Part shown: positions 11,761 through 13,593 of the stretch, in pieces | Layout of the letters: every line of letters starts with the position of its first letter | Numbering within the stretch: the stretch's first letter is position 1 | Source: Escherichia coli | Lineage (GTDB): Bacteria > Pseudomonadota > Gammaproteobacteria > Enterobacterales > Enterobacteriaceae | Length of the DNA: 64,000 nt | Reading direction: 5' to 3' (one strand) | Assembly (NCBI RefSeq): GCF_030013595.1 | Contig: NZ_CP122768.1 | Translations under genes and position numbers: made by a program | Notes under the pieces: model-generated | Database searches by the model: none | What the model saw: only the letters and a program-made list of their open reading frames with translations | Told to the model about the DNA's origin: nothing

Positions 11761-13593
11761 CTACCAAAATCGGGTATAGCCAACATCGTGATTTATATCA
11801 ATGCCACTGGAGCGTGTTTCCGTAACCCGCATATCTGGTGGCATATTTATAAATGATACCTTGATCTCACCATCAACTTTTGGCGCGGTAGCTTTATTAA
11901 TCATGAAGGGATTCGAGCCTGTGGCATCGGAGGCGTTGTTTGCCTGAGCCGGATCCACCGCCGGATAAGGAGTGTATCCCCGTGCCGGTATTCCCGTCCC
12001 ATAAGCATCATAAGCACCCGCGCCCCACTGCGCCGAGTTAAGGGCATCGACCGTGTCACCGGAACTGTCGGTAAACCATTCAATAATCGGCTTCAGCTTA
12101 TCCCACATATCCTGAAACCACTTAACAACCGGTCCCCAGTTATTGATCACCATCCCCAGCGGCGACCTGGCAAAAACCTTCTTCAGAAGTTCCCAGCCAG
12201 CCTCAAAATAAGGACTAATGGTTTCCCAGAGTTTCTTAAAATAAGGTCCGACAACATCCCAGTTAGTGATAATTAATCCCGCAGCCAGGGCAATCGCCAT
12301 CGCAATCATGCCAATCGGCGTCATCGACATGATCCTGCTGACGATACTGATGGCACTGCCCACGCCCATCAATCCCAGTTTCAGAATCGCAAGACCGGCA
12401 GCAAGCCCGACGACGCCGCGAATAACCCGGGGATTTTCATCCGCAAACTTCGTGAATTTTTCCCCCAACTCCCCCAGCCATTGCGTGATATTTTTAGCGT
12501 CACCAGAAAATGCGCCGCCAATAGCTGCAAGACCGTTAGTTGCGGTCCCCGTCATTGCCTCCCACAGGTTGGACAGCGTACCAAGCTGTGCCTGAACACG
12601 TTTATTCAGGCTGGCCTGTTTATTCATCTTCTGCTGGATCTGATCGTAACCATCCTTTCCTTTATCGATCAGAGCATTGACCACCTGAAGGGTTTCGGCA
12701 TCATCACCAAATATTGCCTTAAGTACACCTGTTCGCTTAACGTCGGTCAGTTTTCGCAGCTTTGCCAGTTGCTTAAACATGTTATCAAGACCGCCAAAAC
12801 TCCCTTTGCCGTCAGTAAAATCGAGCTACACTCCGAGTTTCTGGCGGGCCATGACTTTATTGACGTCCCTGATTTTCTTAACGCTTAATCCGGACTGGAT
12901 AACTTTTCGCAGGGCATTACCTGCCGACTCCCCGTTCATCCCCATCTGATCCATCATGACGCTGATAGGGGCAAGGCTCTGTGCAGCCTGAAGACCGTCC
13001 TTGTTCACCATCTTCAGAACAGAACTGGTTTTAGTGAAGAAGGACAACATGTTGGTATCGTCAACGCCCAGATAAAACGCCTTCTGGATAGTGTCGAACA
13101 GCCCCATCATGTCTTCTGACGCCGTTCCGGTAGCATCCTGCATCTTTGCAGCAAACTCAGCAGCCGCTTCCGGTGTTTTTTTCAGTTGTACCGCAAGATA
13201 AGCTGTCGCTTTACCCACACCACCCAGAATGTTTTCTGCCGGGATCCCCTGACGCACCAGCATCTGCATCATGTTCTGGAAATCAGCCGTTGTACCGGGT
13301 AGCTGGTTACCTAGGCCAATAGCCAGTTTATTGATGTCCTGAAAGCTCTTTCCGACCTCACCGTTCGCATCCATCATGGCAACTTTCAGCCCGGTGGCGG
13401 CGTTTTCCTGATCGGCATAAGATTTCAGGGAAAGCGTCAGACCCGCAGCCAGTCCGCCACCAAGCGCCAGCCCACCCTGTGACGCTTCTTCCGCCTGGCG
13501 TTTAAATCCCCGGATTTTCTTTTGCATTTTCGACAGCTCGGGAGAAAGCCTGTCGACACCGGTGATCAACGCCTTAAGCTCAAATTCAGCCAT
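11761..13593 (-). pseudogene. tail tape measure protein interrupted by a single in-frame TAG (12826..12828)
   Basis: ORFs 12826..13593 and 11761..12780 are in the same frame. The 45 nt between them have no stop (..QKLGV*LDFTDGKGSFGGLDNMFKQLAK..). Confidence 0.8.

Follow-up and report, generated by a model that had tools for sequence, protein, structure and literature searches.

The tape-measure genes closest to the one described here are those of phages SfV, SfI, SfII, SKA5 and vB_EcoM-689R6, in which the protein ('Mup42') is encoded by a single uninterrupted gene of 610–611 codons situated between a frameshifting tail assembly chaperone gene and a Mu N-like DNA-circulation gene. SfI is an induced, lysogenizing myovirus with a tail of ~110 nm, and SfI, SfV and the K-12 element e14 are recognized relatives (PMC3636060). 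Prophage ST64B of Salmonella Typhimurium has morphogenesis genes of the SfV/SfI type as well (PMC3636060), and it is rendered defective by a single frameshift that splits one of its tail genes into sb21 and sb22, a lesion that is conserved across 182 ST313 genomes (PMC5322425). Changes of a sense codon to TAG are familiar from phage genetics, the amber mutations in gene H of lambda and in the late genes of Mu being suppressible alleles obtained by laboratory selection on suppressor hosts. In the e14 element of K-12 most of the structural genes are gone, and the integrase and immunity side has been retained.

We analyzed a 64,000-nucleotide stretch of Escherichia coli DNA (contig NZ_CP122768.1, hereafter the window) that carries a tape-measure gene of this type (Table 1). 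The gene lies between the same two kinds of neighbor as in the five phages and is 96–97% identical in DNA sequence to the tape-measure genes of SfV (orf14), SfI, SfII, SKA5 and vB_EcoM-689R6; the protein shares 97% of its residues with those of SfV, SfII and SKA5 over 609 positions. Prophage copies in ~900 complete E. coli genomes reached DNA identities of up to 98.7%. Whereas the gene is uninterrupted in all five phages, in the window it contains a TAG at codon 256. On the basis of these alignments, the interrupted gene is evidently the orthologue of the SfV orf14/Mu gp42 tape-measure protein.

Table 1. Coordinates of the tape-measure gene, its neighbors and the surrounding prophage features in the window
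Feature	Position	Strand	Remarks
Late (structural) region of the SfV/SfI/e14-type prophage	1..24247	-	extends beyond the window on its left
pin invertase gene	3307-3858	-	beside the invertible segment
Tape-measure gene, one 610-codon frame	13593..11761	-	translated as a single frame
Rest of the tape-measure gene, codons 257-610 plus TAG stop at 11761-11763	11761..12825	-	phrog_17727, phrog_28
Amber codon TAG, codon 256	12826..12828	-	ancestral codon CAG (Gln)
N-terminal tape-measure fragment, codons 1-255	12829..13593	-	PF10145; phrog_28; deposited as STE02252.1
Putative -1 frame extension of the chaperone gene	13586..13768	-	slippery heptamer T_TTT_TTC at 13753-13747
Tail assembly chaperone, 89 aa, PF10109 Phage_TAC_7	13735..14004	-	directly upstream of the tape-measure gene
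IS10, 1329 bp; 402-aa DDE transposase at 24354-25562	24248..25576	+	PGAP on matching element: IS4-like ISVsa5-family
e14-type integrase gene, 5'-truncated, without the first 66 of 380 codons	25577..26519	+	mechanical ORF 25605-26519
icd (e14 attachment site)	26633-27883		adjoins the truncated integrase gene

Translation of the 610-codon frame revealed exactly one internal stop, the amber codon. The mutated base, at window position 12828, is T on the coding strand and A on the plus strand. As the initial annotation had described, two minus-strand ORFs, 13593..12826 (255 codons and the TAG) and 12780..11761 (339 codons), lie in a common frame with only the TAG (12828–12826) and 15 sense codons (LDFTDGKGSFGGLDN) between them, after which an ATG follows at 12780. 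Its coordinates and its peptide context, ARQKLGV-*-LDFTDGKGSFGGLDNMFKQ, were right, and its estimate of about 610 aa for the intact gene agrees with the 610 codons counted here and with the 610–611 aa of the orthologues from isolated phages. The segment downstream of the stop holds the hydrophobic central segment and the C-terminus of the protein, and it is colinear with intact orthologues at 98% amino acid identity without a single gap. The mechanically defined ORF within this segment begins at the ATG at 12780, which has no Shine–Dalgarno motif at a useful distance (AAGGGAG lies ~19 nt upstream). Codons 1–255 are expected to be the only part of the tape measure that is translated efficiently. 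A functional tape measure made of two gene products was rejected, as no relative is split at this point and the downstream ATG has no well-spaced ribosome-binding site.

Profile searches connected the two halves to one another. The N-terminal half matched Pfam family PF10145 (PhageMin_Tail) with an E-value of 3.4e-20, and the two halves matched consecutive parts of one tape-measure profile, phrog_28, at positions 230–468 and then 481–710; phrog_17727 gave a further tape-measure match to the C-terminal half. Genes for the sheath, tube and chaperone lie upstream, while a Mu N-like DNA-circulation gene and Mu gp44–48-type baseplate genes, including the hub, lie downstream. From the sequence we infer a −1 frameshift of the chaperone gene, the extension of which ends overlapping the tape-measure start codon; an equivalent extension ORF is annotated in phage vB_EcoM-689R6. 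This conserved arrangement identifies the gene that follows as the tape measure. Homology and synteny, i.e. a position after the frameshifting chaperone gene and before the baseplate genes, thus place the gene in the tape-measure family. Its ruler frame, however, is interrupted at codon 256, and the gene is therefore a pseudogene of the SfV orf14/Mu gp42 family and not a working member. At ~0.15 nm per residue, 610 aa would correspond to a tail of ~92 nm, a predicted value of the same order of magnitude as the ~110 nm measured on SfI.

Which codon orthologous genes carry at the position of the stop had been singled out in the initial annotation as the comparison to make. Codon 256 was read directly as CAG (Gln) in SfV, SfI and E. 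coli HZ13, the last of which also has a single gene in the 610–611-aa range, and it was CAG in 93 of 93 ungapped alignments to IMG/VR sequences. The whole tape-measure gene was contained in 96 IMG/VR relatives, in 95 of which it was uninterrupted and in one (L118) frameshifted elsewhere. A 61-nt probe centered on the TAG matched 375 complete E. coli genomes, always with at least one difference, and a pattern for the exact TAG with degenerate neighboring wobble positions had no match in GTDB representatives, IMG/VR or JGI metagenomes. The control pattern with CAG matched at least 120 IMG/VR contigs. As CAG is present in all other relatives examined, the stop is derived, by a single C-to-T transition (CAG to TAG) at base 12828 of the coding strand. 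Relatives with two separate genes and a conserved stop, which the initial annotation had named as a finding that would refute its reading of one gene split by an amber codon, were not encountered; the stop is confined to one clone. Two other interpretations of the site were rejected. A programmed read-through (recoding) site is at odds with the lack of conservation of the stop, given the CAG codons just described. Deamination of 5-methylcytosine at a Dcm hotspot does not apply, as the ancestral sequence at this site, GTGCAGCTC, differs from the CCWGG motif.

Since the call hinges on a single base, we considered a sequencing or assembly error at 12826–12828, and found nothing to support it. The same TAG context is present in seven independently assembled loci of other isolates (L004–L010), obtained in different projects and on different platforms: GCA_900448395.1, GCA_021649415.1, GCA_036246625.1 and GCA_021646965.1 from NCBI, and ERR5386556, SRR19716081 and SRR30668371 from Logan. 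This reproduction of the TAG in independent assemblies rules out the base-calling error of which the initial annotation had warned, and an artifact of any kind at this site is hardly credible. The seven loci differ from the window by 2–4 SNPs per 12–20 kb. An exact-protein look-up (65 blocks of the collection) found the 255-aa product on record for 39 contigs, and the halves have been deposited as two proteins, STE02252.1 and STE02251.1, from GCA_900448395.1, an E. coli NCTC assembly. The empty pattern scans had hinted at an allele private to one genome, an idea that was rejected in view of the 39 isolate contigs carrying the product. We conclude that the TAG allele apparently arose once and is fixed in one young, near-clonal E. 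coli lineage. The stop had also been called recent; this holds in relative terms, considering the single near-clonal lineage and the 28 other intact late genes, and not in the sense of a mutation restricted to one genome.

The tape-measure gene belongs to the late region of a prophage with genes for an HNH endonuclease, small and large terminase subunits (terS and terL), portal, protease, capsid, connectors, sheath, tube, chaperone, tape measure, a moron, DNA circulation, baseplate, tail fibers, Pin invertase and accessory functions. The structural block extends from the HNH gene (24023) down to the tail fibers and Pin invertase (~3300), beyond which lie the accessory genes. When the late genes were compared with their orthologues in E. 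coli 0H26, 28 of the 29 were full length without a stop or gap, and the tape-measure gene alone was broken. The duplicated 3' end of icd that would form the other attachment site was sought inside the window and was absent; the prophage therefore runs off its left end. The element resembles e14 of K-12 in its icd site, its integrase type, Pin with an invertible tail-fiber segment, and genes of the ymfQ/ymfR type.

Upstream of the HNH gene, IS10 occupies the place where lambdoid relatives have their lysis genes, Q, the nin region and the genes for replication, immunity, recombination and xis. The homology of relatives stops exactly at 24246 and 25577, and in a relative with the same sequence upstream of the HNH gene ~18 kb separate HNH from int. 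IS10 is not flanked by a 9-bp target duplication (the flanks are ggttcaaca and tattaagcg), which indicates that it marks a deletion junction. We conclude that an IS10-associated deletion, as judged from these junctions, took the lysis, Q, replication, immunity and xis genes together with the first 66 integrase codons. A search of complete E. coli genomes for either IS10 junction, carried out to find an IS10-deleted relative with CAG, identified none that shares one. A contig of GCA_026549125.1 is 100% identical to window 25579–32519 and begins at the other IS10 edge, so the deletion is common to at least one more isolate. Functions for induction, replication, lysis and excision have thus been lost from the copy in the window, which is predicted to be incapable of any of these steps. 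The decaying prophage assumed in the initial annotation has therefore shed its early and lysis region in addition to acquiring the nonsense codon. Both this element and e14 are remnants made by deletion, the window's element being the reverse of e14: its structural block was kept, its early, lysis and excision side was lost, and it bears a point nonsense lesion besides.

The outside end of IS10 (24248–24354) faces the HNH–terminase–head–tail operon. IS10 has an outward promoter, pOUT, which would transcribe the stranded late genes in the sense direction. At the other edge of the element, further E. coli lineages that are ~98.2% identical in the icd region (L133–L139) have the same integrase gene truncated to within ~8 bp of the position seen here. 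In these lineages an IS3-family element adjoins the integrase gene instead of IS10, and L133 has a group II intron in addition. A hotspot, or else a scar of greater age that all of them share, may explain the coincidence.

The NCTC strain reveals which lesion came first. Its assembly carries the TAG (L004), and upstream of the HNH gene (L146) it has kept genes for Bor, Rz, endolysin, holin, a DUF3800 protein, Q, YlcG, RusA, YbcO and NinE; homology between it and the window breaks off precisely at position 24246, the edge of IS10. As this sister strain has the TAG yet retains the lysis and Q genes, the amber preceded the IS10 deletion. The amber is thus, by this comparison, apparently an early lesion in a prophage that looks complete over the visible regions, and the IS10 deletion a later one within a sub-lineage. 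Further changes have accumulated in individual isolates, including a Y127* (TAA) in the DNA-circulation gene of L009 and an A437D substitution in L010 downstream of the amber. Within the lineage, late genes have 6 non-synonymous and 2 synonymous changes, a ratio that fits relaxed constraint on sites too few to prove relaxed selection. With every other late gene intact, the structural block gives hardly any independent indication of prolonged neutral decay.

The tail module with the TAG also occurs next to a different head module. In GCA_021649415.1 (L005), over the equivalent of window 18289–21337 and beyond, it is joined to a diverged portal/protease/capsid segment with 79 clustered differences, and the 3' end of the terminase gene is unrelated. 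This locus is evidently a recombinant head module on the same lineage of tail genes. Elsewhere in the family, the annotation of a related prophage in E. coli SCU-485 lists the tail terminator gene (12070–12630 of locus L132) as a pseudogene interrupted by a stop; several early genes of this prophage are frameshifted. Together with the frameshift in L118 (1 of 96 relatives), this observation suggests that single-gene lesions are recurrent but uncommon in prophages of the SfV/e14 type.

The most likely explanation for these results is that the TAG is a genuine nonsense mutation that abolished tape-measure function in the course of ordinary prophage decay in one clone. We hold this reading to be very probably correct, and it is the first of the two alternatives offered in the initial annotation, borne out by the ancestral CAG, the intact orthologues of 610–611 aa and the IS10 deletion. 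The proposed course of events is as follows. A C-to-T change in the CAG at codon 256 of an icd-integrated, Mu-like-tailed prophage of the SfV/SfI/e14 type would have occurred once and then been inherited. Translation would end after 255 residues, giving a ruler protein devoid of its hydrophobic central segment and C-terminal portion. By analogy with gene H of lambda and the Mu ambers, no tail of defined length would be assembled without a full-length tape measure. Heads without tails are expected of lambda H and Mu late-gene amber mutants, and an induced lysogen of the NCTC type would likewise be predicted to release tailless, non-infectious heads. The IS10-associated deletion would have followed in the sub-lineage of the window, with loss of lysis, Q, replication, immunity, xis and the 5' end of int. 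The 24 kb structural block that remains would be a stranded, non-inducible remnant in which the amber has no further phenotypic effect; we infer that this block is not expressed in the window's strain.

The other alternative of the initial annotation was an allele that functions only in an amber-suppressor background, e.g. with a supE-type glnV tRNA (anticodon CUA) that inserts glutamine and so yields the wild-type protein. The mutation has the form required, since it converted a glutamine codon to TAG and a glutamine-inserting tRNA would give back the ancestral, functional residue. The allele has also persisted onto 39 contigs with the other 28 late genes intact, although such persistence is equally expected of a neutral lesion in a clone as young as this one (2–4 SNPs per 12–20 kb). 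No tRNA gene lies within the 64-kb window, and no positive evidence of a suppressor was obtained. Moreover, the prophage in the window is devoid of lysis, Q, replication and excision genes, so that suppression could not yield a working phage, and the second tail-gene nonsense codon, Y127* of L009, is TAA and not amber, which fits plain decay. As the data are explained without a suppressor, we regard a conditional allele as highly unlikely. The lesion is of the same type as the lambda H and Mu ambers, the difference being that those were laboratory selections and the allele described here occurs in assemblies of natural isolates.

A loss-of-function mutation need not be complete. Here a C follows the UAG, so that low-level read-through may take place, and the few copies of the tape measure needed per tail may then suffice. 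In sister strains that are otherwise complete, read-through, re-initiation or T-to-C reversion could in this way produce a few infectious particles. A single revertible base is involved, and the NCTC-type prophage keeps lysis genes, Q and all other late genes over the visible regions; the module with the TAG has taken part in recombination, as it is found on a different head and terminase module in L005. It has been argued that read-through of in-frame stops in bacterial genes is commoner than supposed (PMC7918605), and the resuscitation of ST64B provides a precedent (PMC5322425). Re-initiation, on the other hand, would have to use the ATG at 12780 with its AAGGGAG ~19 nt upstream and no Shine–Dalgarno motif at a useful distance, and the 339-aa C-terminal fragment would at best specify a far shorter tail. 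The stop is unconserved outside the clone, which argues against a programmed recoding site, and a leaky lesion is inapplicable to the IS10-deleted copy in the window itself. We consider a leaky or resuscitable lesion unlikely. The more specific proposal that the amber in NCTC-type strains acts as a leaky 'parking brake', released in a single step by reversion or passed by near-cognate tRNA-Gln, which would yield the wild-type protein, with resuscitation as in ST64B, appears quite unlikely; the recombinant head module of L005 would fit the continued genetic exchange that such a brake would allow.

Selected inactivation is a further way to account for a broken tail gene, in that the host would benefit from a prophage that cannot make virions and still provides useful genes (PD-T4-3, bor, the moron and pin). 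Accessory genes are indeed intact, namely PD-T4-3 at 2473–3246, the moron at 11139–11669 and Bor in the sister strain, and isolates differ in the orientation of the Pin-invertible segment. The prophage was also struck again, by the IS10 deletion and by Y127*. A tail-gene knockout, however, stops neither induction nor lysis and would leave the lysogen unprotected; a mutation favored for host survival would be expected to hit genes for regulation, replication or lysis, as the later IS10 deletion did. Furthermore, the rate of disruption among relatives is low (1 of 96), and one event in one clone cannot tell selection from drift. Domestication therefore seems an improbable cause of the amber, and ordinary decay is retained as the explanation.

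ST64B is the nearest natural parallel to the inactivation of this tape-measure gene. In both prophages one small mutation caused a tail gene to be annotated as two ORFs and was inherited throughout a clone, but the lesion of ST64B is a frameshift in another tail gene, while that of the window is an amber in the tape measure. The possibility that sb21/sb22 is the orthologous gene was rejected, since the tape measure of ST64B is sb16, which is 23.5% identical. The phenomenon itself is ordinary pseudogenization and carries little weight beyond annotation. For annotation, STE02252.1 and STE02251.1 should be treated as one tape-measure pseudogene and the prophage scored as defective. The locus is a small, clean and dated example of the order of decay, with nonsense in a tail gene followed by an IS-mediated deletion and by further nonsense in one isolate, and the TAG can be used as a lineage marker.

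Several other features of the window were recorded. The invertible tail-fiber segment at 3920–5792 (1873 bp), which has ~20-bp crossover repeats, is in the opposite orientation in L007 and L009 relative to the window, and the Pin-type invertase of this defective prophage thus seems from these sequences still to be active in the lineage. Near pin, a plus-strand gene at 2473–3246 encodes a LEM-3-like GIY-YIG protein that matched PADLOC PD-T4-3 over its full length (E=2e-140) and stands where e14 of K-12 has mcrA. To its left, low-GC ORFs at 808–1233 and 1549–2070 (34–40% GC) had no family match. Between the tape-measure and DNA-circulation genes, the minus-strand moron ORF at 11139–11669 (34% GC) encodes 176 aa with a hydrophobic N-terminus. 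Its only match was to phrog_5485 (unknown function); Pfam and PADLOC yielded none. The moron follows the tape measure in the window and in some E. coli prophages and is missing from SfV and SfI. A second phage-like element lies on the minus strand at ~39600–62000, after potB, and is partly common to E. coli UMNF18. Its genes comprise a tail fiber, late-control D, X, U, a 552-aa tape-measure-like protein, tube and sheath, followed by fiber, baseplate and head-type ORFs.
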